NCBI GenBank assembly: GCA_018649885.1 | Contig: JABIHA010000127.1 | Location: 50,238 to 70,237, forward strand | Length of the DNA: 20,000 nucleotides | Reading direction: 5' to 3' | DNA from: Bacteriovoracaceae bacterium | GTDB taxonomy: Bacteria; Bdellovibrionota; Bacteriovoracia; Bacteriovoracales; Bacteriovoracaceae | Part shown: in pieces, positions 2,284 through 16,004 of the stretch | How the letters are laid out: each line of letters opens with the position of its first letter | How positions within the stretch are numbered: position 1 is the stretch's first letter | Notes under the pieces: model-generated | The model's input: only the letters and a program-made list of their open reading frames with translations | Told to the model about the DNA's origin: nothing | Databases searched by the model: none | Program-made: the position numbers and the translations under genes

Positions 2284-2979
2284 ATGAAAAAAAAAGTCGC
2301 AATCGCAATATTTGTAAAAACCCCCAAATTTTCATCTTGTAAAAGTCGCTTGGCCAAAACAATTGGCACTAGTGCTGCCGTTAAGTTTCATTTATTCTCC
2401 TCAAATATTGTGGGAGAAACAGTATCTAGTGTGACTCAGGCCCAAGGGTTTTGGTCAATCGCTGAGCTTGAAGCAATGGATGGCGAATACTGGGGTGGTG
2501 GATTAAAAAAAATCCATCAAGGAAAAGGATCTTTAGGGGAGAGACTGGATAGAGTTTACCAAACTCTGTCACAAGACTTCGAAAAAGTGATCTTCCTTGG
2601 AGCTGATTGTCCACAAGTTGAAAAATCTCAAATCGATCATGCCTTAAAAAAACTTGAAAAAGCTGATTTTGTATTTGGTCCTTCAGAAGATGGAGGTTTT
2701 TATCTATTTGGTGGAGCCGCGCCCATCTCTAGAGAAATTTGGAATGAAACTCGCTACAGCGAAAGTGACACCTTAGCTCAAATTTCCAGAAGCTTAAAAT
2801 CCATTGGTAGTGTTGAGATTATTGAAAGTCTATTTGATGTAGATCATTTTGATGAATTTAAAAAATTAGGCACTGCTCTAGGAAGCTTTCAAAACTTGAC
2901 TCCAAAAAAGAAAGAGTTACTTAATTTTATTGATCACTTAGTTGAAGAGCAGGAAGCTCCTCCAAGTACACAAAACTGA
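2284..2979 (+). CDS. TIGR04282/DUF2064 family transferase (arsenosugar/rSAM-associated, CofC-like fold)
   Basis: IFVKTP..KSRLA, G.LGERL, FLGADCP, GPSEDGGFYLFG and LFDVD motifs. Confidence 0.88.
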   Translation: MKKKVAIAIFVKTPKFSSCKSRLAKTIGTSAAVKFHLFSSNIVGETVSSVTQAQGFWSIAELEAMDGEYWGGGLKKIHQGKGSLGERLDRVYQTLSQDFEKVIFLGADCPQVEKSQIDHALKKLEKADFVFGPSEDGGFYLFGGAAPISREIWNETRYSESDTLAQISRSLKSIGSVEIIESLFDVDHFDEFKKLGTALGSFQNLTPKKKELLNFIDHLVEEQEAPPSTQN

Positions 2980-3860
2980 GCGCAAAACTTGTGGGCCAGA
3001 TGTACTCTTGATAGAGACTCTTTAAGTGAATATCCCATCTCAAATTTGGGGTCATATGCTAGGAGTGTACAAGGCATAACCACTATTCGTGATTCTCCCT
3101 TTTTCTTAATGACCATCCTCTGTGTTGCACACATCTGATCTTCTGGTCTTTTACCGAGTATACTCCAGCAACCAGTACTTATTTCAGGGACATTTTTTTG
3201 TAGATCCATCTCGGGGAAGATCACCAACTTTTTCTCGATATCAATACTTATACCATGAGAATTTAATAATCTTTGGTAGCTGCATTTTGCATCAGTACTA
3301 GTTTCTTCTTTGAGAGATCTTCCAGCAATTGAAATATTAAATCGGCTCACAAATAACCACTCAACCATCTTTAGACACGAATCAAATGTGCCTTGCCCTC
3401 TTTCCTTCTCATGCAGTTCTTTTGTATGGTGATCAAGTGATATCCTGATATGCAATTTGTCACTATAGCGTACTAACAAACTTAAAAGAGCAATTTTGTG
3501 CCTTTCTAAAACTCTGTGAGCATTGGTCAGCACTAGTACTTCGAATCCACGGGATAGAATTTCTTCTAAAATTTCTATGATTTGTGGATTCAAAAATGGT
3601 TCACCGCCGGTTAAACCTATTAAATTTGTGGTCATCTGATTTTCTTTGATTTCGTCAAGAAAAGGTGTGATATCTTTTGTTTCAATGAAAGACAGCCTGT
3701 CATTGCTAGGAGAGGATTCAATATAACAGTTCTTGCAGCTAAGGTTGCATTTTGTGCCAGTATTAAACCAAAGAGTTTTTAGTAGCTGAAAATCAACAAA
3801 GGCCCTTTGTTTCCCACATACTGTGGACTCTGGGTTTTTAAAGTAGAGGTTAGTATCCAT
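2934..3860 (-). CDS. Radical SAM protein, ArsS-related by context; likely start ATG 3860
   Basis: CNLSCKNC (CxxxCxxC), LTGGEPF, VLTN, ISLD, RGQGTF; Cys-rich C-terminus CAQFCVLGGASC. ATG 3860 overlaps the DUF547 stop (translational coupling). Confidence 0.88.
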   Translation of the reverse strand: MDTNLYFKNPESTVCGKQRAFVDFQLLKTLWFNTGTKCNLSCKNCYIESSPSNDRLSFIETKDITPFLDEIKENQMTTNLIGLTGGEPFLNPQIIEILEEILSRGFEVLVLTNAHRVLERHKIALLSLLVRYSDKLHIRISLDHHTKELHEKERGQGTFDSCLKMVEWLFVSRFNISIAGRSLKEETSTDAKCSYQRLLNSHGISIDIEKKLVIFPEMDLQKNVPEISTGCWSILGKRPEDQMCATQRMVIKKKGESRIVVMPCTLLAYDPKFEMGYSLKESLSRVHLAHKFCAQFCVLGGASCSSTK

Positions 3861-4617
3861 TAAGATTCCAATCATAGTCCATGTAATCAATTCTAGTCGA
3901 TTTATTCTTTATGAGTTGTTGCTCAGAAATATCTTGGGTAAAGTAAGTTGCTAGAAAATTTGGGACACTACCAAACTTTTTCTTAAAGTCACCTTTGTAC
4001 CATTTAAAAATTTTACTCAAATTAAGTGTCTGCTTTTTTAAGTTCCAGCGATTTTTTTTCCTATCAGTAATAAAAGAAAAAGTGGCCTTTTCAAGTTGAG
4101 AATTTAAAGAGGTTGGGTAGAAGGCTTCAGGGTATAGGTTTGGGCAACCAATAGACGCGCAGTTCACTGCAAAGTGAATCCTGGGTTCATTGAAGTTTTT
4201 TCTAATCATGTCGTGCTCAATACCATCGAGACTTCTTTCTTCTTCAAGGAGAATGAAAAATTTCTTTTTCCAAGGACTGGTAAAAAGTGAGCCCAGCTTT
4301 TTAATTGATTCTAATGGGAAATTATCTACTATGAGTTTTACGGTGAAGGCATTGTAAGCATTGATCAGAAATGCCAGCTTTTCATTTTTTGAAAATGCAT
4401 TGTATTCTTTTTTACTTACAGCAGTTAAGCTACCCAGGTATTTAACCAAAAGATTTTTTTCTTTTTTTACTCCACGGTAATTTACCAAGTTTTGCTTACC
4501 ATTTTTTCTCATATTCTTTTTGAGAATCATTGACCACTCTCTATGCGAGTGATCGAAGGCGTAAGAATTCGATAGGACAAAAAATGCGCAAATTGTGAAT
4601 AGTGATTTTAGCAACAT
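3850..4617 (-). CDS. DUF547 domain exported protein
   Basis: Signal peptide; LAFLINAYNA, LDGIEH, EPRIHFAVNCASIGCP, LSKIFKWY..DF, YDWNLN. Confidence 0.9.
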   Translation of the reverse strand: MLLKSLFTICAFFVLSNSYAFDHSHREWSMILKKNMRKNGKQNLVNYRGVKKEKNLLVKYLGSLTAVSKKEYNAFSKNEKLAFLINAYNAFTVKLIVDNFPLESIKKLGSLFTSPWKKKFFILLEEERSLDGIEHDMIRKNFNEPRIHFAVNCASIGCPNLYPEAFYPTSLNSQLEKATFSFITDRKKNRWNLKKQTLNLSKIFKWYKGDFKKKFGSVPNFLATYFTQDISEQQLIKNKSTRIDYMDYDWNLNGY

Positions 4618-5663
4618 GATCCCTCCGTAGAGTTTTTGCCACTAACCCCTTCAAATGGTGATGAACTACCACAGCCAGGAAAAATGCCATAATGGTCGTC
4701 AAAGGTTCCATAAAAATCGAAATGTTTTTCAAAACGAGTATTTTTTAACATCAAAAATGTATTTCCACAGACTTTCTCCAACTTTGCTTTTTCAAAGTTG
4801 TGATGGCCATCTAAATCAAATGATGTGGGTTGTTCTGAAATTGTTCCTTTATAGGCCACACTCTGTCCATAATCTTCACAGTCATCCTCAAGTCCATCAA
4901 CTTTAAATAGTCTGTAGGTTAGGGAGTAAAATTCTGTTCCCTCTAGTTTTTCTTTGATCGAATCATTTTCAATGGTAATTGGTTTTTTGCTAACACAACG
5001 AGCATCACGAAAGCCCACGGCCTTTGCAATCTTCAAAAAATCATTCCAGTAAAGAGCTCCACTAAGACATTCTCCGTAGAGAACTGGATCAGCTTGCAAT
5101 TCGGCTGATATTCTTCTGCTGGCGTAAACATCTGAGAAATAGAATTCGCCACCAGACTTTAATTTGTTGAAACAATCTCTTAGAACTTTTTCTTTATTTT
5201 TACATAAGTTAATCACGCAGTTTGAAATGATTAAATCAAAGTAATCATTTTTAAGGGGAGTTTCTTCCATTTCATCAATATTGCCTTTGATAAAACTAAT
5301 ATTGGGTTTTTGGTAAGAAAATTTCTCCGTGTGATAATCTACATACTTATTTGCAACGAGAAGTTGCTCATCTGTCATATCAAGACCTACAACTTCACCA
5401 CTTTCACCCACGAGTTTTGAGGTGATATAAGCATCTCTGCCACTTCCAGATCCAAGATCGAGAACTTTAAGGCCTGCTAGCTCACTGGGAATGGCAAGAC
5501 CACAGCCGTAATACTTTCTATGAACTTCATCATGGACTAAGGACATTGCCTCTTTGATAAAATTTGGCGGCGGCTCTAATGTGCAGCACGCGTTTGTTTT
5601 TAAATCATCAGACTCTTTTAATTCTTTTCCGTAGTACTCTTGAACTTCTTGGTGGATGTCCAT
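4608..5663 (-). CDS. arsM: Arsenite methyltransferase (ArsM/AS3MT family)
   Basis: V.EYYG...LKTNACC, YYGCG, VLDLGSGSGRD, GLDMT, ISNCVINL, GECLSGALY cover the four conserved AS3MT/ArsM cysteine positions; C-terminal GSCC. Confidence 0.82.
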   Translation of the reverse strand: MDIHQEVQEYYGKELKESDDLKTNACCTLEPPPNFIKEAMSLVHDEVHRKYYGCGLAIPSELAGLKVLDLGSGSGRDAYITSKLVGESGEVVGLDMTDEQLLVANKYVDYHTEKFSYQKPNISFIKGNIDEMEETPLKNDYFDLIISNCVINLCKNKEKVLRDCFNKLKSGGEFYFSDVYASRRISAELQADPVLYGECLSGALYWNDFLKIAKAVGFRDARCVSKKPITIENDSIKEKLEGTEFYSLTYRLFKVDGLEDDCEDYGQSVAYKGTISEQPTSFDLDGHHNFEKAKLEKVCGNTFLMLKNTRFEKHFDFYGTFDDHYGIFPGCGSSSPFEGVSGKNSTEGSCC

Positions 5664-7798
5664 ACTTTTTCACCTCGCACATAGCTATGAAATTTTTCTA
5701 TAAATCTTAAAAGTTTTTCTGGTTTTCTATTTTGCTTATAAACTCCGGCCAGGTATTTATTTGCCTCGCTCATTGTTGGGTAGGGATGAATAGTTCCCAG
5801 TATTTTATTTAACCCCAATCCATGCTTCATAGCAAAGGTAAATTCGCTTAAAAGCTCTCCAGCATTGTATCCAACTATGGTGGCACCTAAAATTCTATCA
5901 CTTCCTGTCTTGGTGATTACCTTCACAAATCCTGCTGCTTCACCTTCACAAATGGCCCTATCCAAATCATCTATGCCATATTTTGTGACTTCATATGAAA
6001 GTCCTTGCTCTTTAGCTGCTCTCTCATTCACTCCCACAGTTGCAACCTCTGGATCGAGATAGGTGCACCAAGGAATTGTTTGATAGTCCACCTTGAATTT
6101 CTTCACTGCACCAAAGAGTGCATTAACAGATGTGTACCAAGCTTGATGGGCCGCTACGTGAGTTAGCTGATAGGGCCCTGTTACATCTCCGCAGGCGTAT
6201 ATATTGGGATAGTTTGTCTGTAGATACTCATTGGCCTCTATAGTGCCATTTCTTCTTAGTTCAACCCCTAGCTCTTCAAGGCCAAATCCTTTGGTGTTTG
6301 CCTTTCTTCCAACTGCCACTAGCACCTTATCAAATTCGATGATGACTTCACCGATAGCACTAGAGCAAGTAAGCCGGTTACCCTTAAACTTAATGGCCTT
6401 GTGAGTTGTGAGAATATTGACTCCTTCTTTTTCGAGCTTATTTTTGACAAATTCACTGACTTCCTCATCTTCTCTAGCTAAAAGCAAGGGCGCCATTTCT
6501 ACAACGCTAACACTTGAGCCCAGTCTATTAAATGTTTGTGCCATTTCTAGACCTATTGGTCCTCCTCCTAGAACAATAAGTCTTTTGGGAAGCTCTTCTA
6601 ATTTCCAAAGATTTTCAGATGTTAATACATCTGCTTTTTCAATCCCTGGAATTGGGGGGACAAATGGTGAGGCACCCGTTGCAACGACAATATTTTTTGT
6701 TTTAATAATTTGGCCGTTAACTTCGACTTCCCAAGGAGATATAATTTTGGCCTCTCCAGAGAAACATTCAACTCCCAGAGATGAATACCTTTCCACAGAG
6801 TCATGGGGTTCAATTTTTTCTATAACCTTTTGAACTCGATTCATTACATTTTTAAAGTCGAATTCTATTTCAGTACTTGTTAATCCCAGCTCATTTGCCT
6901 TTTTGGCCATATGAAGAATTTTTGCTGATTTAATAATTGCCTTTGAGGGGACACATCCCGTGTTGAGGCAATCACCTCCCATTTTATCTTTTTCAATTAA
7001 GGCGACTCTAGCTTTAACAGCGGCTCCAATATAAGATGTCACAAGTCCAGCTGCTCCTCCTCCGATGGCCACAATATTGTAGTCAAACACCTCGGGCTTT
7101 TTGAACTTTTTGTAAACAGAGTTTGCTTTAAATTTATCTACAATCTTTTTTGAGATAATTGGAATTAGGCCAAGTACGGTGAATGAGAGAAGGATTGAAG
7201 GAGATAGTATGCCTGAGATCGATTTTAATTTTGAGAGCTGAAGTCCTGCATTAACATAGGCCATAGTCCCTAGAATCATCCCTATTTGGCTGACGAAAAA
7301 ATAAGTGTGAGTTTTAATTTTGGTAAGGCCCATTACAAGGTTAACTAAAAAGAAAGGGAAAAGAGGAACCAGCCTTAAAGAGAAGAGGTAGAATGCTCCC
7401 TCTTTTTCAATTCCCTTATTAATTGAGTTGATCTTGCTGGCAAATTTCTTTTCAACAAAATCTCTTAAAACTAACCTTGCCACCAAAAAAGCCAGCGTTG
7501 CTCCTATGGTACTGGCAAAGGAAACAATGATTGTCCCAGTAACAAATCCAAATATCGCACCACCAACCAAGGTAAGAACAGTCGCGCCTGGAAGTGATAG
7601 TGCGGTAGAGACAATATAAATGAGAGCATAACTGCCAATAGTTAATATTTGATTTTGAGCATAAAAAGATCTGATGGAATCTAAATTTTGTTGGAAGTAA
7701 TCCAGACTTAGATATGATTGAAGATTAAAAATCTTTACTACGGCTAGTAAAATTAAAATTAATAAAATTATCAAAATTTTTGTTTGCTTCTTTTTCAT
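5618..7798 (-). CDS. DedA/VTT (TVP38) domain fused to a pyridine nucleotide-disulfide oxidoreductase (MerA/LpdA-like)
   Basis: N-terminal TM region with LPGA..L...GG..FG and LRLVPLFPFFLVN; then IGGGAAG, GGDCLNTGCVPSK, LGGGPIGLE, ACGDV, IHPYPT.SE. Lacks the MerA C-terminal Cys pair. Confidence 0.92.
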   Translation of the reverse strand: MKKKQTKILIILLILILLAVVKIFNLQSYLSLDYFQQNLDSIRSFYAQNQILTIGSYALIYIVSTALSLPGATVLTLVGGAIFGFVTGTIIVSFASTIGATLAFLVARLVLRDFVEKKFASKINSINKGIEKEGAFYLFSLRLVPLFPFFLVNLVMGLTKIKTHTYFFVSQIGMILGTMAYVNAGLQLSKLKSISGILSPSILLSFTVLGLIPIISKKIVDKFKANSVYKKFKKPEVFDYNIVAIGGGAAGLVTSYIGAAVKARVALIEKDKMGGDCLNTGCVPSKAIIKSAKILHMAKKANELGLTSTEIEFDFKNVMNRVQKVIEKIEPHDSVERYSSLGVECFSGEAKIISPWEVEVNGQIIKTKNIVVATGASPFVPPIPGIEKADVLTSENLWKLEELPKRLIVLGGGPIGLEMAQTFNRLGSSVSVVEMAPLLLAREDEEVSEFVKNKLEKEGVNILTTHKAIKFKGNRLTCSSAIGEVIIEFDKVLVAVGRKANTKGFGLEELGVELRRNGTIEANEYLQTNYPNIYACGDVTGPYQLTHVAAHQAWYTSVNALFGAVKKFKVDYQTIPWCTYLDPEVATVGVNERAAKEQGLSYEVTKYGIDDLDRAICEGEAAGFVKVITKTGSDRILGATIVGYNAGELLSEFTFAMKHGLGLNKILGTIHPYPTMSEANKYLAGVYKQNRKPEKLLRFIEKFHSYVRGEKVWTSTKKFKSTTEKN

Positions 7799-7840: not shown

Positions 7841-7870
7841 GTTAGTGTGCCGAGATGGTATATTGTTACA
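7841..7870 (-). promoter_or_regulatory. Putative ECF sigma promoter, copy 1 (TGTAAC-N16-ACACTAAC), for the reductase-arsM-DUF547-rSAM operon
   Basis: Minus strand tgtaac aatataccatctcggc acactaac, about 43 nt upstream of ATG 7798; same motif and spacing at 8381 and 10033. Confidence 0.7.
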
Positions 7871-7906
7871 CAAGATTATTTATTAAAAGGTGCAAGCATT
7901 AAAGTA

Positions 7907-8479
7907 GTGGACCCCGAATTTACCCAGAAGTTGAAAAATGGAGATAAAGACGCCATGTCTAAAATCGTCCATGACTACTCGTCCCATCTATTCAAAGCAG
8001 CTCTGGGTCTAGGTTTTGATGAAAATGAGTCCAAAGAGTTGACTCAAAAAACCATGGTTAAATTCGTGGAAGTGGTCCATAAATTTGAGGGTAGGTCTCA
8101 TATTCGGACCTTTTTATTCGGCATTTTCTATAATCACGTTCATGAGGCGAGAAGATCCTTCAAAAAGGCCCAAAGCCATGACCCTATTGATGAAGTGGCG
8201 GAGTCGATGTTCGATGAGCGTGGCAATTGGCAAAAAGATGCCAGGGTAAGTTCCCCAGAAAAGTTTTTAGAAGCCTGTCAAACTATGGATATCATTGAAT
8301 TATGCTTAGATAAGTTACCCATAAGACAGAAGATGGCCTTCACACTAAAATTTGTTGATTCCGCCGAAACGAGTGAAATATGTAACTTATTGACGGTTTC
8401 TGACACTAACCTAAGACAGCTGCTTTTTAGAGCAAAGAGTAGGCTGAGACTCTGTGTTGAGTCTCACATGAATAAATAA
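7907..8479 (+). CDS. ECF sigma-70 factor; start probably GTG 7907 or ATT 7898 rather than 7784
   Basis: Region 2 ELTQKT...FEGRSHIRTFLFGI; FDERGNW; region 4 LDKLP.RQK.AF.LK.....EIC..L......RQLLFRAKSRLR.C. Confidence 0.9.
   Translation: MDPEFTQKLKNGDKDAMSKIVHDYSSHLFKAALGLGFDENESKELTQKTMVKFVEVVHKFEGRSHIRTFLFGIFYNHVHEARRSFKKAQSHDPIDEVAESMFDERGNWQKDARVSSPEKFLEACQTMDIIELCLDKLPIRQKMAFTLKFVDSAETSEICNLLTVSDTNLRQLLFRAKSRLRLCVESHMNK
8381..8410 (+). promoter_or_regulatory. Putative ECF promoter, copy 2, embedded in sigma region 4 and pointing at the anti-sigma gene
   Basis: tgtaac ttattgacggtttctg acactaac: 14/14 box positions identical to copy 1 with the same 16-nt spacer; 80 nt before ATG 8490. Confidence 0.6.
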
Positions 8480-8489
8480 GGACGCGAGA

Positions 8490-8735
8490 ATGTTAAGTTG
8501 CAAAGAACTTTACGAACATTTGGCCAGTGGCAAAGAGCTTACTAGGATCCAAAAGCTTCAGTATCCTATGCACCTTTTTATGTGTCACAACTGCAAAAAA
8601 ATTGCCTCTCAATTTAAAACCATAAATTCTAGCTTTAAAAAAGTCGTGACCAAGAGAATGGAAAAGGCAAGTGAAGATAAAATTAGCGAGCTGGAAAAAA
8701 GCGTTTGGGAAGAAGTAGAGCGTAAAATTTCTTAA
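8490..8735 (+). CDS. Soluble zinc-binding anti-sigma factor (ZAS, zf-HC2)
   Basis: MLSCKE...HLFMCHNC (HxxxCxxC); 10 nt after the sigma stop; no TM segment. Confidence 0.88.
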   Translation: MLSCKELYEHLASGKELTRIQKLQYPMHLFMCHNCKKIASQFKTINSSFKKVVTKRMEKASEDKISELEKSVWEEVERKIS

Positions 8736-9999
8736 AGTAAACTTCGAAGTAATTAAACAAAATTGGAAAATACCACATGTGGACTAAAACCTCTGCAAGT
8801 CGGTTGTACTGGTAATATCCATAAGGGGTATAAGACAGGCAGCTAAAAAAGGCGTAGGCCATGGCCCACTTATTTTTTGTATATAGTGAAAATAGTAAAA
8901 ACCAAATTGTGTACCAGGGATTGAATACAGGTGAGAAAAATATCATGGAGCTGTGAAGGATCACTCCTGCTTCAAAAAAGGCACCTTTTTGCAGAGGCCT
9001 TGTCATCACTTTTAAATGCACAAGAGTCACGACCATTAAAAATGCTGCAAATGTAATCTGCCTCGCCAGTGGAATTTCTAGTTCAAGTAGATTAACTAAA
9101 AGTGAGTAAAATCCGGGAATCCATACCCAGTCCTTACTAAAACTGAGTACACCACTAAGTAAATTCAAATCAGTGATGTGGAACCAAAAAAATAGTCCAA
9201 GAGATAGGGGAATAAAAGCTGAAGCTAATATGCTCCTAACTTTGTTAATAGGTGTGGTTTTATTTGTAATAAAAAAAATAGGGAGAGTCACCACGCCAAT
9301 GAGTTTGCTCCAAAAGCTCATGAAATAAAGTCCATAGGTTAATAGCGTTCGTTTCCCATCTTTTTCCTTCAGCGCAAAAAGAGGTAATAGAAAAACTGCT
9401 GCAAAAAGATCTATATGAACAGCTTGAATATATTCTTTTTGTAAAAGAGGAAAAAATACACATAAGTAAAGAGCAGGCGTATTTCTTTTTGTGAAAAACC
9501 TAAATACTAAAGCAATCAGAAGTGCATTGAGGAGCATTAAACCCCGGAAAGCAAATTCGAAGGGGAGCTTGGCCACCAGGCTAAACCACAGTATTCCCAG
9601 CGGAGGATAAATCGTCGTGAGGTTGGAAAACCCAATACGATTTTTAGCCGCGTATTCGATATGTGACAGGGCCGCGTGGTCTGGGGATAGAAGGTAGGGG
9701 CTGAGGCCACTGGCCATAACTTTCCCCTCCCATATATAGCGGTAATGATCATTTTCAAAAATTGGTGAGTGAGAACACATTACCATTACCACACCGATGA
9801 AAAAGGCCACAGGTGAGAGTTCAAAATTAGTGGAGTGTTTTTTTAAAAGCACTAAGCACAAGGCCAGAAATCCAAAATTGTATAAGATGTAATAGATACC
9901 ACCAAAGTACTCCGGTCCCGGAGATTTTAGTGCGTAGGAAACTACTGCTAGGAAAAGTGCATTAAGTATCCAAAGAAAATTGATCTTATTTTTTGTCAT
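8683..9999 (-). CDS. GT-C-type (GT87-like) polytopic membrane glycosyltransferase; start ATG 9999 or 10005
   Basis: Many TM helices; ENDHYRYIWEG, TIYPPL, H.D, SPVFNPWY motifs. Confidence 0.75.
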   Translation of the reverse strand: MTKNKINFLWILNALFLAVVSYALKSPGPEYFGGIYYILYNFGFLALCLVLLKKHSTNFELSPVAFFIGVVMVMCSHSPIFENDHYRYIWEGKVMASGLSPYLLSPDHAALSHIEYAAKNRIGFSNLTTIYPPLGILWFSLVAKLPFEFAFRGLMLLNALLIALVFRFFTKRNTPALYLCVFFPLLQKEYIQAVHIDLFAAVFLLPLFALKEKDGKRTLLTYGLYFMSFWSKLIGVVTLPIFFITNKTTPINKVRSILASAFIPLSLGLFFWFHITDLNLLSGVLSFSKDWVWIPGFYSLLVNLLELEIPLARQITFAAFLMVVTLVHLKVMTRPLQKGAFFEAGVILHSSMIFFSPVFNPWYTIWFLLFSLYTKNKWAMAYAFFSCLSYTPYGYYQYNRLAEVLVHMWYFPILFNYFEVYFKKFYALLLPKRFFPAR

Positions 10000-10003
10000 A
10001 TCC

Positions 10004-10033
10004 ATTAGTGTGAAATATATGTAAATTGTGACA
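10004..10033 (-). promoter_or_regulatory. Putative ECF promoter, copy 3 (TGTCAC-N16-ACACTAAT), for the GT-C gene
   Basis: Minus strand tgtcac aatttacatatatttc acactaat; the -10 box overlaps ATG 10005. Confidence 0.65.
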
Positions 10034-10068: not shown

Positions 10069-10779
10069 GTGATTGTCATTATCCCCGCCTTGAATGAAGA
10101 AGATTCTATCGGCTTGGTTTTACAAGAGATTCCCATGAAAAGGGTCAAACAAGTTATTGTTGTTAATAATGACTCAAGTGATCAAACAGCTTGTGTTGCA
10201 ACCAAGCATGGCGCTCATGTGGTTCATGAACCAATTCGTGGCTACGGTAAGTGTTGCCTGACAGGAATCGCTGAGGCCAGAAAAGATCCAGCTGACATAG
10301 TGGTTTTTTTAGATGGAGATTACTCTGATCACCCAGAGGAGATGGACCAACTCCTTTCTAAGCTTGATAGCGGATACGACTTTGTCATAGGAAGTAGAAT
10401 GCTTGGAAAAGCAAAGCCGGGGGCGCTTCTTCCTCAGGCCCGGTTTGGAAACTGGCTGGCCACAACACTTACTAAATGGTTTTTTGGAGGAGTTGCCTTC
10501 TCTGACCTGGGACCATTCAGGGCCATTAAGTGGAGCTCGCTTGAGAGAATAAAAATGTGCGATGAAGACTTTGGTTGGACTATGGAGATGCAAGTTAAGG
10601 CCATAAGCTTTGGGCTTAAATACACAGAAGTCAGCGTCAGTTATCGAAAGCGCGTAGGAGTTTCTAAAATTACCGGAACAGTCTGCGGAACTATCAAGGC
10701 CGGTTACAAAATTCTCTATACTATTTTTAAGTACCGCATTCTTAGTTGGATTAAATCAAGCTCATTTTCTTCAAAATAA
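10069..10779 (+). CDS. Glycosyltransferase family 2, DPM1/polyprenol-phosphate glycosyltransferase-like
   Basis: IIPALNEE, VNNDSSD, RGYG, FLDGDYSD, VIGSR, DLGPFRAI, GWTMEMQ, EV.V.Y..R.G.SK. Confidence 0.9.
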   Translation: MIVIIPALNEEDSIGLVLQEIPMKRVKQVIVVNNDSSDQTACVATKHGAHVVHEPIRGYGKCCLTGIAEARKDPADIVVFLDGDYSDHPEEMDQLLSKLDSGYDFVIGSRMLGKAKPGALLPQARFGNWLATTLTKWFFGGVAFSDLGPFRAIKWSSLERIKMCDEDFGWTMEMQVKAISFGLKYTEVSVSYRKRVGVSKITGTVCGTIKAGYKILYTIFKYRILSWIKSSSFSSK

Positions 10780-11571: not shown

Positions 11572-12492
11572 TTAAAGTTTAAAATTGGTATTTAAGATTT
11601 GATTGCTCCAAGAAATCCTTTTTTGATCATTTATAGAGTAACCATACAGTGAATCACCTATCAGAGTGTATATGGCTTTTTGTTCAACTCTTTTTTCGAA
11701 GTCTTTATCAACATGTCCAGAATAATTTTCCACTACCATATGATAAAATTTACGATTAGATGCCCATATACAAGCAAAGTCTGCTGCTGGATCTCCAATG
11801 GCCATATCTGTCCAGTCGATAATTCCGGTGATCTTATTTTCTGCTCCCCCACAAATAATATGTTCAACACCTAAATCATTGTGAGTGAGAACCTTTTTTC
11901 CAAGAAAAGGTGTAATGCCCTTGTACTTTTCAAAGAGTATATTGAATTTATTCCATACACTTATTGGAATCATACCTTTCATTTCTTCAAGATTTTTTTT
12001 TGTCTCATCTCTAAAGTCTTTTGTAACTTCACTTCTTTCTTCAAAAATAGAGAGGTTTTCAATTTTTTTCAATGTATTCAAACTGTGCAAGGTCGTTAAA
12101 AAATCTCCCATGGTTTTTGCGTTAGCGATTGTTGCATATTGACTGGGAGGTATCTCGATAATGGGAGCACCTTCAATTTTTTTATAACCACCGATTGTAT
12201 TGGGGAAGACCTTCGAGGAATGAGAAATAAATGAATAATCTGGGGATAAAATGGGAAGCGAGTCGCTTAAAAGCTTCATCACCTCTAGTTCTTTGTTGAA
12301 TAAGGAGTTGTATTTGTCTCGTCTAGGAAAACGAAAGATAAATTCAGCGTTGATTTCAAAACAATTAAAATCCCATCCACTACCAAGAAATTTTATAGAT
12401 GATACTAAAAGTTCGGGAAAAGCTTCAGCCAGAATAAGTTTCGCCTTCGCACAATCCAAAGAATATTGATCTTCCCACTGCTTTGGGTCCAT
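11572..12492 (-). CDS. Aminoglycoside phosphotransferase (APH)/choline kinase family protein
   Basis: LGSGWD, FIFRFPR, E...L, HNDLGVEHI (Brenner motif), GIIDWTD...GDPAADF. Confidence 0.85.
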   Translation of the reverse strand: MDPKQWEDQYSLDCAKAKLILAEAFPELLVSSIKFLGSGWDFNCFEINAEFIFRFPRRDKYNSLFNKELEVMKLLSDSLPILSPDYSFISHSSKVFPNTIGGYKKIEGAPIIEIPPSQYATIANAKTMGDFLTTLHSLNTLKKIENLSIFEERSEVTKDFRDETKKNLEEMKGMIPISVWNKFNILFEKYKGITPFLGKKVLTHNDLGVEHIICGGAENKITGIIDWTDMAIGDPAADFACIWASNRKFYHMVVENYSGHVDKDFEKRVEQKAIYTLIGDSLYGYSINDQKRISWSNQILNTNFKL

Positions 12493-13892: not shown

Positions 13893-16004
13893 TTATTTTA
13901 GCAATTGGTAATACAAGCTTAGCGCCCTAATGGCTTCATATCGTCCACCCATACCATATCTACAGTATGAGATTTCTTTCACTAAAATTCCTGTGAATTC
14001 TGGTTCGTATACAGTTGGGTTCTTCTCAACGAAATCAACTAGCCAACGCACTCCTTTTTCAAGTGCTTTAGTGTATCTTGTGGGGCATCGATTTATGAGG
14101 CTAAGTACAGAACAGGTCTTGCTGTCTTTTTTGGCCATGCTCTCAAATCTCGCAAGCATTCTGATAGCCCATACTGTAGCTGTCATTGATGATTTAGCAC
14201 TGACAAAATACTTCTTTTGATCACTAATTGGATCTTCACCCCAGCCACCATCTATATTTTGTTTTTCAACTAACCACCTTACATGTCTCTGAGCTCGGTT
14301 GGCCTTAGTCCAGCATTTCGCGTCTAACAAACCAATTATTGCTTGAGTTGTGCCGTAAATGTAGTTAATACCCCAGTCACCTTCAACAATATCAATTCCA
14401 AAAAATGGTTTAAAGAGTTTACGTTCAAGGAAACTACAAGCACTATTTATTGTTGTTTTCAATTTGGGAGGATTGTAGCCAGTAGCATTTCTTGCGAACA
14501 CTAATCCTTCAAGAGCACGGGCCGTAACATCGGGTTGGCTTACATCGAAGTAGCTTGGAAGTCTTTTATCCATTTTTGCTATTTCACTTAGTAGGGTAGA
14601 CATTCCTTTTTCATATGCAGGAAATCCACCGTCACTATTTTGCATTCCAATTTCCCAGTCCATACCTTTTTTAATACTTTCTAACCAACGAGTGTTTGCC
14701 TTCCCAGCATCAAGAACAGGATTACTGGCCAAAGCCGTGAGCACCATTCCTGTATCATCGGTATCCGGGTAAAAAGTATTGGCATGTTGAAATCCCCATC
14801 CCCCTGGTTTTAAATCTGGTGCTGTAAATTTGTAGTCACCATCAACTATTGGTTGTAGCTTAATCAACCAATCAATGGCGCGGGCCTTGGAATTGAGTGG
14901 CAAAAGAGTTGTTTCAGTAATTTTTTCACTTTCAGCTATAACGGCCATCCCTCTGGCAGTGTCAACAATAGGGCCATCTGAAACCTGAAGGTAGCCTTCA
15001 CCTGAATCTGATTGATCAGCGTCAATCCACCAAGAATGAAACATACCATCCCACCCAGCTTTCATCTGGGCACTATAGTCAGCCACTCCAGCGCGGTCTG
15101 CCTCGTATAAGGCCCAAATAGACATCAAAGTGACATAGGGAACCCCGTACCAGGTGCCATCTTTTTCTTGTCGTTTTAATAAATATCCAAGACCTTCTTG
15201 GGCCCAAAAATCTTCTGGGTATCTGGAGAATTTCTTTGCAAGATTAATAGTCCCTTCGACAATGCTTTCAAAACCTGTGTTCAATATAAAACTTGGAAGC
15301 TCACTTACACCCAAAATTAATGAGCTTCCTTTTCCGAAAGCCTCCCCAGCAGAATCAATTCTACTTTGTTCAATTAAAGATCCCTTATGTCCTGACTCAT
15401 TAACTCTTTGATAGAAATTGGCAACGGCCAGTGGAACACCTGCTGAGCGGAAGGTCCCAATATTTATAATATTCATTGGTGTCCACTTTGGAAGAGCGAA
15501 AAATATGGGAGTCACTTTTGATACAAAAAAGTCTTTTTTAACTCCAGCAATGTGCAACATCCCTCTATGCAAAAAATGCAAATCAATAAGGCTTTTACCT
15601 TGAGCTCTCAACCAGTTCCACTCAGTTTTAAATTGATCAACACTGTCTACATCATAGTCTTTCAACATATGTAAAAGAGAATAGGTAATATGAAAATTAG
15701 TGGCCCCACCTGGATAAAGTGGCCATCCCGTTTTAGTTTTCCACTTCCAAGTGGTAACTCTTTTTAATAATTTTTGCTCTTGTTCACTCGTTATGAGTCC
15801 GGTTCTCTTCCCAACCATCAGTACCGCAGCTTCAGTCAGAGGATCCCCTTCAAACTCCCCTTGAAAATAACCATCAGAGCTCTGCTCTTTGGCCAAATCA
15901 TCTGCCAGTTTTAAAATACTGTCCTTTACTGTGGCTTTCATTGAATCAGCAAAGCTTGTTTGCATAAAAAATAATGCTATAAAAAGCACCAAAACCCTCT
16001 TCAT
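13893..16004 (-). CDS. shc: Squalene-hopene cyclase-like class II terpene cyclase with an N-terminal signal peptide
   Basis: GGWGFQ..N..YPDTDDT (DxDD); QW repeats QEKDGTW, QNSDGGF, QNIDGGWGE; DVTARALE; GDWGINYIYGT; GGAG RBS. Confidence 0.8.
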   Translation of the reverse strand: MKRVLVLFIALFFMQTSFADSMKATVKDSILKLADDLAKEQSSDGYFQGEFEGDPLTEAAVLMVGKRTGLITSEQEQKLLKRVTTWKWKTKTGWPLYPGGATNFHITYSLLHMLKDYDVDSVDQFKTEWNWLRAQGKSLIDLHFLHRGMLHIAGVKKDFFVSKVTPIFFALPKWTPMNIINIGTFRSAGVPLAVANFYQRVNESGHKGSLIEQSRIDSAGEAFGKGSSLILGVSELPSFILNTGFESIVEGTINLAKKFSRYPEDFWAQEGLGYLLKRQEKDGTWYGVPYVTLMSIWALYEADRAGVADYSAQMKAGWDGMFHSWWIDADQSDSGEGYLQVSDGPIVDTARGMAVIAESEKITETTLLPLNSKARAIDWLIKLQPIVDGDYKFTAPDLKPGGWGFQHANTFYPDTDDTGMVLTALASNPVLDAGKANTRWLESIKKGMDWEIGMQNSDGGFPAYEKGMSTLLSEIAKMDKRLPSYFDVSQPDVTARALEGLVFARNATGYNPPKLKTTINSACSFLERKLFKPFFGIDIVEGDWGINYIYGTTQAIIGLLDAKCWTKANRAQRHVRWLVEKQNIDGGWGEDPISDQKKYFVSAKSSMTATVWAIRMLARFESMAKKDSKTCSVLSLINRCPTRYTKALEKGVRWLVDFVEKNPTVYEPEFTGILVKEISYCRYGMGGRYEAIRALSLYYQLLK

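Follow-up and report, generated by a model that had tools for sequence, protein, structure and literature searches.

A probable CACTAA-type promoter motif, its candidate ECF sigma factor and a motif copy inside the sigma gene of a Bacteriovoracaceae bacterium

The sigma locus and its probable promoter motif

We analysed a window of 20,000 nucleotides (nt) from a Bacteriovoracaceae bacterium, a marine bacterium of predatory type, and studied a sequence motif that recurs there around the gene of a sigma factor of the extracytoplasmic function (ECF) type. The sigma gene occupies positions 7907–8479 of the + strand (its start is uncertain, GTG at 7907 being the likeliest), and its product falls in a clade whose sister is the TIGR02943/Neisseria sigmaE group. 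It is followed on the same strand by a gene (8490–8735) for a soluble protein of 81 amino acids (aa), which has no hydrophobic segment and combines a C4 cluster with HxxxCxxC, the zinc anti-sigma (ZAS) motif. This protein matched NF052368 with 27.8 bits, the cut-off being 50, and is likely the anti-sigma factor, as judged from its sequence.

The motif, TGTMAC-N16-ACACTAA, is 29 nt long and has three exact matches in the window, as the original prediction for this stretch had claimed; none of 200 shuffles of the window contained a single match. Copy 1 (7842–7870, − strand, TGTAAC form) lies back to back with the start of the sigma gene and faces a four-gene operon, whose first gene, for a fusion of a VTT (TVP38) domain with a pyridine nucleotide-disulphide oxidoreductase (5618–7798, −), starts 43 nt away. 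Copy 2 (8381–8409, +) lies within the sigma gene, where it covers the codons of the sigma4 helix-turn-helix residues C-N-L-L-T-V-S-D-T-N, and faces the anti-sigma gene at a distance of 80 nt, a point that the original prediction had missed. Copy 3 (10005–10033, −, TGTCAC form) stands 5 nt before the ATG of a gene for a 438-aa, weakly GT-C-like membrane protein (8683–9999, −). The positions and the orientation toward a gene downstream were as first described, except that each span had been given one base too long.

As the pattern had been drawn from the window itself, it was tested outside it. The genome-wide scan that the original prediction had proposed gave six exact matches at spacer 16 in the 5.45-Mb genome, three of them outside the window, and two exact matches summed over the 14 other spacers between 10 and 24, in agreement with the fixed 16-nt spacer claimed at the outset. 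When scored with a matrix built from 35 sites of other genomes, the six exact sites ranked 1–5 and 7 genome-wide. Among these 35 sites, the first A of ACACTAA was variable (A in 20, T in 7, G and C in 4 each), and the conserved core is TGT(A/C)A(C/G/T)-N17-CACTAA, with NCACTAA as the −10 element in all three window copies and in relatives. An unusual −10 in place of CGT, as proposed originally, is upheld, with its limits redrawn to CACTAA instead of ACACTA. A bipartite motif with a fixed spacer of 16–17 nt, standing upstream of and facing genes, is what is expected of promoters of ECF (group 4) sigma factors. With the spacing known from Neisseria (PMC2893595, available to us in part), transcription would start 6–7 nt after CACTAA, at about 7836–7835 for copy 1, 8416 for copy 2 and 9999 for copy 3. 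The last of these predicted starts coincides with, or adjoins, the A of the ATG at 9999, and the GT-C-like mRNA would thus likely be leaderless.

Two of the three exact copies outside the window precede an AhpD/CMD-like gene (contig C72) and a gene for an AhpC/TSA membrane protein (C143:27264). The candidate regulon, defined in the original prediction by three copies, thus extends beyond the window.

Covariation of the motif with the sigma factor

A profile search of 237 genomes of the family found a match to the sigma factor in 70 of them. We counted a relaxed pattern, TGTMAB-N17-CACTAA, with the reversed pattern as a control. In the 56 genomes with a strong sigma match (our own genome excluded) the motif occurred 292 times versus 109 for the control (1.49 versus 0.56 per Mb), and in the 13 genomes with a weak match 28 versus 18 times; the 167 genomes without the sigma factor showed no enrichment (358 versus 386; 0.67 versus 0.73 per Mb), and the significance of all these counts is overstated by the relatedness of the genomes. 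The excess in sigma-bearing genomes survived the removal of one internal copy per genome. A set of 98 sigma orthologues, chosen from 148 distinct genes by a score of at least 200 and less than 80% identity, was used for the gene-level comparisons. In the flanks of these genes, the motif matched 22 times at spacer 16 versus 1–4 times at other spacers. Three genomes (G029 with locus L047, G015 and G145) have several motif copies and no match to the sigma or anti-sigma queries, which may reflect an assembly gap or a divergent sigma factor; one exact copy in this group precedes an ArsM-like gene.

The base at −31 offers a more direct link between the motif and the protein. It is read by the residue equivalent to Arg171 of RpoE, which we aligned and checked on structure 1OR7 and which is Arg in the window sigma (codon 8414–8416). 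According to published mutagenesis of this position (PMC7776599 Dataset S3, the part available to us), Arg prefers C (0.88), and Gly prefers G (0.43) or T (0.35). In the orthologues, C was found at −31 with Arg-type sigmas in 15/16 internal and 6/6 flanking sites, and G or T with Gly-type sigmas in 54/60 internal and 14/14 flanking sites, so that the residue–base rule holds in 20/20 sigma-flanking sites and agrees with the mutagenesis. Even the synonymous choice of the Asn codon within the internal copy follows the residue (AAC in 11/12 genes with Arg, AAT in 19/24 with Gly). The residue has changed at least six times on the tree. It sits ten codons downstream of the wobble base of the internal −35, and the predicted start falls inside its own codon. 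Such tracking of a key sigma residue by the promoter is expected if the motif is the promoter of this sigma factor.

Copy 2 was analysed by comparing its codons with the expectation from the codon use of the same genes, binned by GC content at third positions (GC3), which ranges from about 0.2 to 0.9 among the 98 orthologues. The Cys codon is TGT in 89/94 genes (48.8 expected), the Thr codon ACT in 74/87 (24.6 expected) and the Lys codon AAG in 40/43 (22.9 expected), while the codon preceding Thr ends in C in 83/95 (29.9 expected), although this column holds 13 different residues. Of 187 columns, the Cys, pre-Thr and Thr wobble positions are the three under the strongest constraint, which holds at 70% dereplication as well; in two adjacent control columns codon use is at expectation. 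AAC is not enriched for Asn over all genes (16/37, 13.9 expected), as would be expected if the −31 base splits by the Arg/Gly residue.

The internal copy is present in 76/98 sigma genes, and a ZAS gene comes next in all 76 (74 whole, 2 cut by contig ends). Among the 22 sigma genes without it, 12 have an adjacent ZAS gene, 9 do not and 1 could not be scored; none of the 9 loci that lack an adjacent ZAS gene thus has the internal copy, and these represent about 3 changes on the tree. Such loci are found in two genera, g16 and g14. ZAS genes located elsewhere in these genera, six through a protein search and two through the motif itself, have a motif copy 16–155 nt upstream in 8/8 genomes and in three different gene contexts (exact in G148, G139, G141 and G062, with one mismatch in G142, G149, G140 and G013). 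The chance of a one-mismatch copy is about 0.0013 per 200 nt. Given their similarity to the 81-aa protein of the window (E 0.001 and 5e-9), we infer that the relocated ZAS proteins are the cognate inhibitors.

At 1/93 loci, a copy on the strand of the sigma gene was found within 300 nt upstream of it, and in the window no same-strand copy with up to two mismatches was found just upstream of the sigma gene. A scan for sigma-70 promoters gave 7 sites with 6.2 expected and did not identify the sigma gene's own promoter. The sigma gene thus appears not to be autoregulated from upstream.

Taken together, these comparisons make it very probable that the motif is the −35/−10 promoter read by the ECF sigma factor encoded next to it and that the copy embedded in its sigma4 codons drives the zinc anti-sigma gene as a negative feedback. 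The assignment to the local sigma factor made in the original prediction is supported by the co-occurrence, by the residue–base covariation and by the 16-nt layout shared with the Neisseria-type sister group.

Regulon, signal and alternative readings

The operon behind copy 1 continues, on the − strand, with genes for an ArsM-like S-adenosylmethionine (SAM) methyltransferase (4608–5663), a DUF547 protein (3850–4617) and a radical SAM protein that is distantly ArsS-like (2934–3890; start uncertain). None of the proteins of this cluster reached the ArsM or ArsS cut-offs (160 bits versus 263 for the methyltransferase with PRK11873, 82 versus 400, and 70 versus 300 for the radical SAM protein with TIGR04167). 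What had been called an arsM operon begins with the fusion gene, and its methyltransferase is below the cut-offs for arsenite methyltransferases. The GT-C-like protein has 8 hydrophobic segments, no Pfam match over the cut-off and a match to MptB at E=4e-4. Its gene belongs to the candidate regulon in this genome, as proposed originally, and not as a conserved member, a copy preceding such a gene at 1/12 sigma-bearing and 0/16 other loci, with 1.5 kb upstream read. The 3′ ends of the GT-C-like and anti-sigma genes overlap by 53 nt (8683–8735) on opposite strands, where the two transcripts, if of the same regulon, would collide head-on.

Other genes of the window are a TIGR04282 glycosyltransferase gene (2284–2979, +; 136 bits, passing the cut-off of 134) and a GT2 gene (10069–10779, +), which both flank the cluster and neither of which has a same-strand copy with up to two mismatches just before it, as well as genes for an APH-family phosphotransferase (11572–12492, −; far under all cut-offs for resistance genes) and a squalene-hopene cyclase-like protein (13893–16004, −; TIGR01507 199 bits, below the cut-off of 431).

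In five relatives, the strict pattern had 25 matches versus 2 for the control. The genes behind these sites include msrA (four times), msrB (three times), trxA (twice) and AhpC/TSA genes (twice), and further targets are a thioredoxin-reductase-like gene, an ArsM-like gene and a gene for a short, secreted-type peptide rich in Cys, as well as anti-sigma genes. Several strict sites face nothing. msrA also stands behind a copy at locus L045. In genus g14 (L247, L251), a second copy, kept in both genomes, is found 164 nt ahead of msrB, within the 3′ end of the gene that precedes it. Among the best 30 ArsM-like genes of 63 genomes, a copy within 250 nt was found at 10/19 sigma-bearing loci versus 1/11 others. 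In the window, the promoter stands one gene further upstream of the ArsM-like gene than in relatives.

ZAS proteins are known to inhibit their sigma factors via zinc-binding cysteines, as described for MseR (PMC2893595) and HrsE (PMC7907618) in the parts of these papers available to us. By analogy, the 81-aa protein would keep the sigma factor inactive until thiol oxidation (hypochlorite, peroxide or disulphide stress) frees it. RNA polymerase with the freed sigma would then transcribe the operon of VTT-oxidoreductase, ArsM-like, DUF547 and radical SAM genes, as well as the GT-C-like, AhpD-like and AhpC/TSA genes. The anti-sigma-only mRNA started inside the sigma gene would restore the excess of the inhibitor.

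Several observations weigh against this reading. In our own genome, the relaxed pattern is noisy (21 matches at spacer 16 versus 4–15 at other spacers), and the two msrAB genes have no motif copy. The sixth exact site, top-scoring, lies in a convergent intergenic gap (C21:121582–121610, L048) and faces no open reading frame; it may be a chance match or a small-RNA promoter. It points antisense into the 3′ end of a neighbouring gene, presumably of the DUF374 family. A conserved small-RNA promoter at this place was considered and rejected, as a strict copy was found in 0/29 DUF374 loci. In the sigma set, 12/88 ZAS-adjacent loci miss the internal pattern, and a copy is also missing from two weaker ZAS-like genes in g14. 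The independent-pair tests, both of low power, were not significant, with 3 starred pairs for Arg and −31C and 2 for ZAS and motif. An exception to the residue–base rule is the ArsM-like gene of G149, an Arg-type genome, which is preceded by TGTAAT. Finally, the rule that an acidic residue at the Lys56 position goes with −11A (PMC7776599, the available part) does not apply, this residue being acidic in 0/98 sequences.

Could copy 2 be a by-product, its motif spelled by codon chance in helix residues C-N…T-N, with only copies 1 and 3 true promoters? The helix conserves C, T and N, TIGR02943-type relatives also have S-N or T-N there, and the 12 ZAS-adjacent loci without the internal pattern would fit. 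Nevertheless, we hold this to be most improbable. The synonymous positions of copy 2 are fixed against the GC3 bias, in both directions; the AAC/AAT choice follows the Arg/Gly residue; relocation of the anti-sigma gene goes with loss of the copy and with the presence of one before the relocated gene; and 0/9 TIGR02943-type sigmas have an internal match. It is just as hard to credit that the motif is read by another factor, be it one of the genome's other ECF sigmas or a regulator that would bind the motif as two half-sites. There are 10 sigma-70-type matches over the family cut-off in the genome, and binding of the motif by the window sigma is a prediction; however, the enrichment is confined to genomes with this sigma, and the −31 base varies with the sigma's own residue as the available mutagenesis data (PMC7776599) predict.

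A different kind of alternative accepts the promoter and concerns the signal only, and is thus compatible with the feedback: arsenite or another thiophilic metal(loid) would act on the ZAS cysteines, and the core job would be arsenic methylation or arsenosugar synthesis. The frequent copies before ArsM-like genes at sigma-bearing loci, the TIGR04282 gene near the cluster and the arsS genes beside sister-group sigmas on plasmids speak for it, as does one study, available to us in part, in which Neisseria sigmaE showed no response to H2O2, diamide or singlet oxygen (PMC2893595). On the other side, most identified targets in relatives are genes of methionine and thiol repair, the response of H. 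influenzae to hypochlorite has msrAB driven by RpoE2, a sigma factor close to Neisseria SigE (PMC7907618, the part available), and the methyltransferase and radical SAM protein score far under the ArsM and ArsS cut-offs. We therefore consider an arsenic signal unlikely, if worth keeping in mind; from the targets in relatives, oxidant stress appears likelier than arsenite.

Returning to the sigma factor that would read its own internal promoter, we regard as probable, with less assurance than the promoter assignment itself, a wider interpretation. An undescribed zinc-sensing ECF clade, reaching from Bacteriovoracaceae to GC-rich bacteria of soil and sediment, would have switched its −10 to CACTAA and written its promoter into the stretch that encodes its own −35 recognition helix. 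Changes in the helix and in the promoter would go together, and the link between sigma and anti-sigma would be needed strongly enough to be rebuilt after gene moves. The result would be a non-autoregulated redox switch with negative feedback that commands the ArsM-like/DUF547/radical SAM cluster. If so, this cluster serves oxidant defence, and the tie of the poorly understood ArsM-like/DUF547/radical SAM/VTT-reductase genes to a methionine/thiol repair regulon would be a lead on their job. It would also mean that a promoter and a regulon can be assigned to an ECF lineage invisible to upstream-motif methods, which would miss it because the sigma gene is not autoregulated. One DNA stretch would be both the code of a DNA-binding helix and the site read by that helix, with residue and base co-changing, a clear natural case of this kind. 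A CACTAA-specific sigma factor might be used as an orthogonal part in synthetic circuits.

Relation to known ECF systems

Named homologues of the sigma factor come from Halobacteriovorax, Bacteriovorax and Bdellovibrionales, and a related-locus search with the single sigma query returned only distant ECFs of 19–33% identity. In a quick tree of 37 proteins, the sigma clade (20 rows, SH-aLRT 99) adjoins 9 TIGR02943-type sigmas including N. gonorrhoeae Ecf (99); the joint group (98) also holds the protein of L210. The window sigma scored 91.1 bits with TIGR02943 and did not reach the cut-off of 162.2 (orthologue P0016 of Halobacteriovorax marinus SJ, 99.5; Neisseria Ecf, 271). In the literature covered, from which subscription papers are mostly absent, we found no description of the motif or the clade, and the supplements of PMC7826278 and PMC7776599, partly available to us, may hold the group.

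Of the features listed for ECF293 in the available text of the PMC7826278 supplement, two are present. A soluble zinc-finger anti-sigma gene follows at +1, as at 88/97 scorable loci, and three sigma4 cysteines (C135, C161 and C185) are each kept in at least 90% of 27 sequences. For the extended sigma2–sigma4 linker, which is also listed, the text gives no criterion of length; the linker of the window sigma is as long as that of E. coli RpoE. ECF293 is listed there without a promoter conserved across subgroups. The sequence features thus place the sigma factor probably in or next to ECF293.

The nearest described systems are Neisseria sigmaE/Ecf–MseR and H. influenzae RpoE2–HrsE (ECF13, now ECF293), which share with the present system a soluble ZAS anti-sigma at +1 with Cys4/HxxxCxxC. 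According to the available part of PMC2893595, they also share msrAB and DUF692/DUF2282-type targets, a −35 of GTMAG and a −10 ending in CTAA. The N. gonorrhoeae locus has TGTCAG-N16-CGTCTAA, with the same 16-nt layout, and H. influenzae RpoE2 shows little autoregulation, as here (PMC7907618, in part). At other TIGR02943-type loci, we found TGT(A/C)AN-N16-CG(T/A)CTAA at five sites in three loci (L211, 2682 and 6220; L289, 184 and 205; L287, 861), which extend the Neisseria promoter to other proteobacteria; these sites face thioredoxin/ccdA, arsenosugar-type or DUF692 genes. The differences lie in the −10, which is CG(T/A)CTAA there and NCACTAA here, the window copies not carrying CGTCTAA, and in the internal promoter copy, found in 0/9 of the Neisseria-type sigmas examined. 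The position of RpoE Asn84 also differs, with Asp in 9/9 TIGR02943-type sigmas versus Glu in 96/98 of this clade (codon 8144–8146 in the window). A change from Asp to Glu as the cause of the new −10 was considered and set aside as weakly supported, the register being ambiguous; ECF11 with Glu is given as CA 0.35 and CG 0.33 with standard deviations above 0.2, and several other residues are alike (PMC7776599 Dataset S3, in part). As far as the sequences tell, the sigma factor would work like Neisseria sigmaE, though below the TIGR02943 cut-off, and the motif would be a real promoter with a small regulon, a variant of an already known redox ECF/ZAS system that the comparisons strongly support.

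Bradyrhizobium EcfF (ECF16; tGTAACc-N16-CGAA) resembles the window system in its TGTAAC −35, its 16-nt spacer and its role in the oxidative-stress response, as far as the accessible text of PMC3420878 goes. It differs in the CGAA-type −10, in being autoregulated and in its anti-sigma factor, a six-helix DUF1109 membrane protein (PMC7826278 supplement, in part).

Promoters that lie inside a sigma gene and feed the anti-sigma gene have known parallels. In the rpoE-rseABC operon of E. coli, a sigmaE-dependent internal promoter feeds the anti-sigma gene rseA; this system differs in responding to envelope stress, in its membrane anti-sigma factor and in its GGAACTT/TCAAA promoter. In C. glutamicum, a SigH-dependent promoter, PrshA, inside sigH yields an mRNA of the anti-sigma gene rshA only, and was proposed to keep the inhibitor in excess (PMC3489674, the part available to us). 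There, the sigma factor is of another ECF group with a GGAA…GTT motif, and the case is described for one species; here, in contrast, the copy occupies codons of the recognition helix, is found in 76/98 diverse orthologues and follows the anti-sigma gene when this is relocated.

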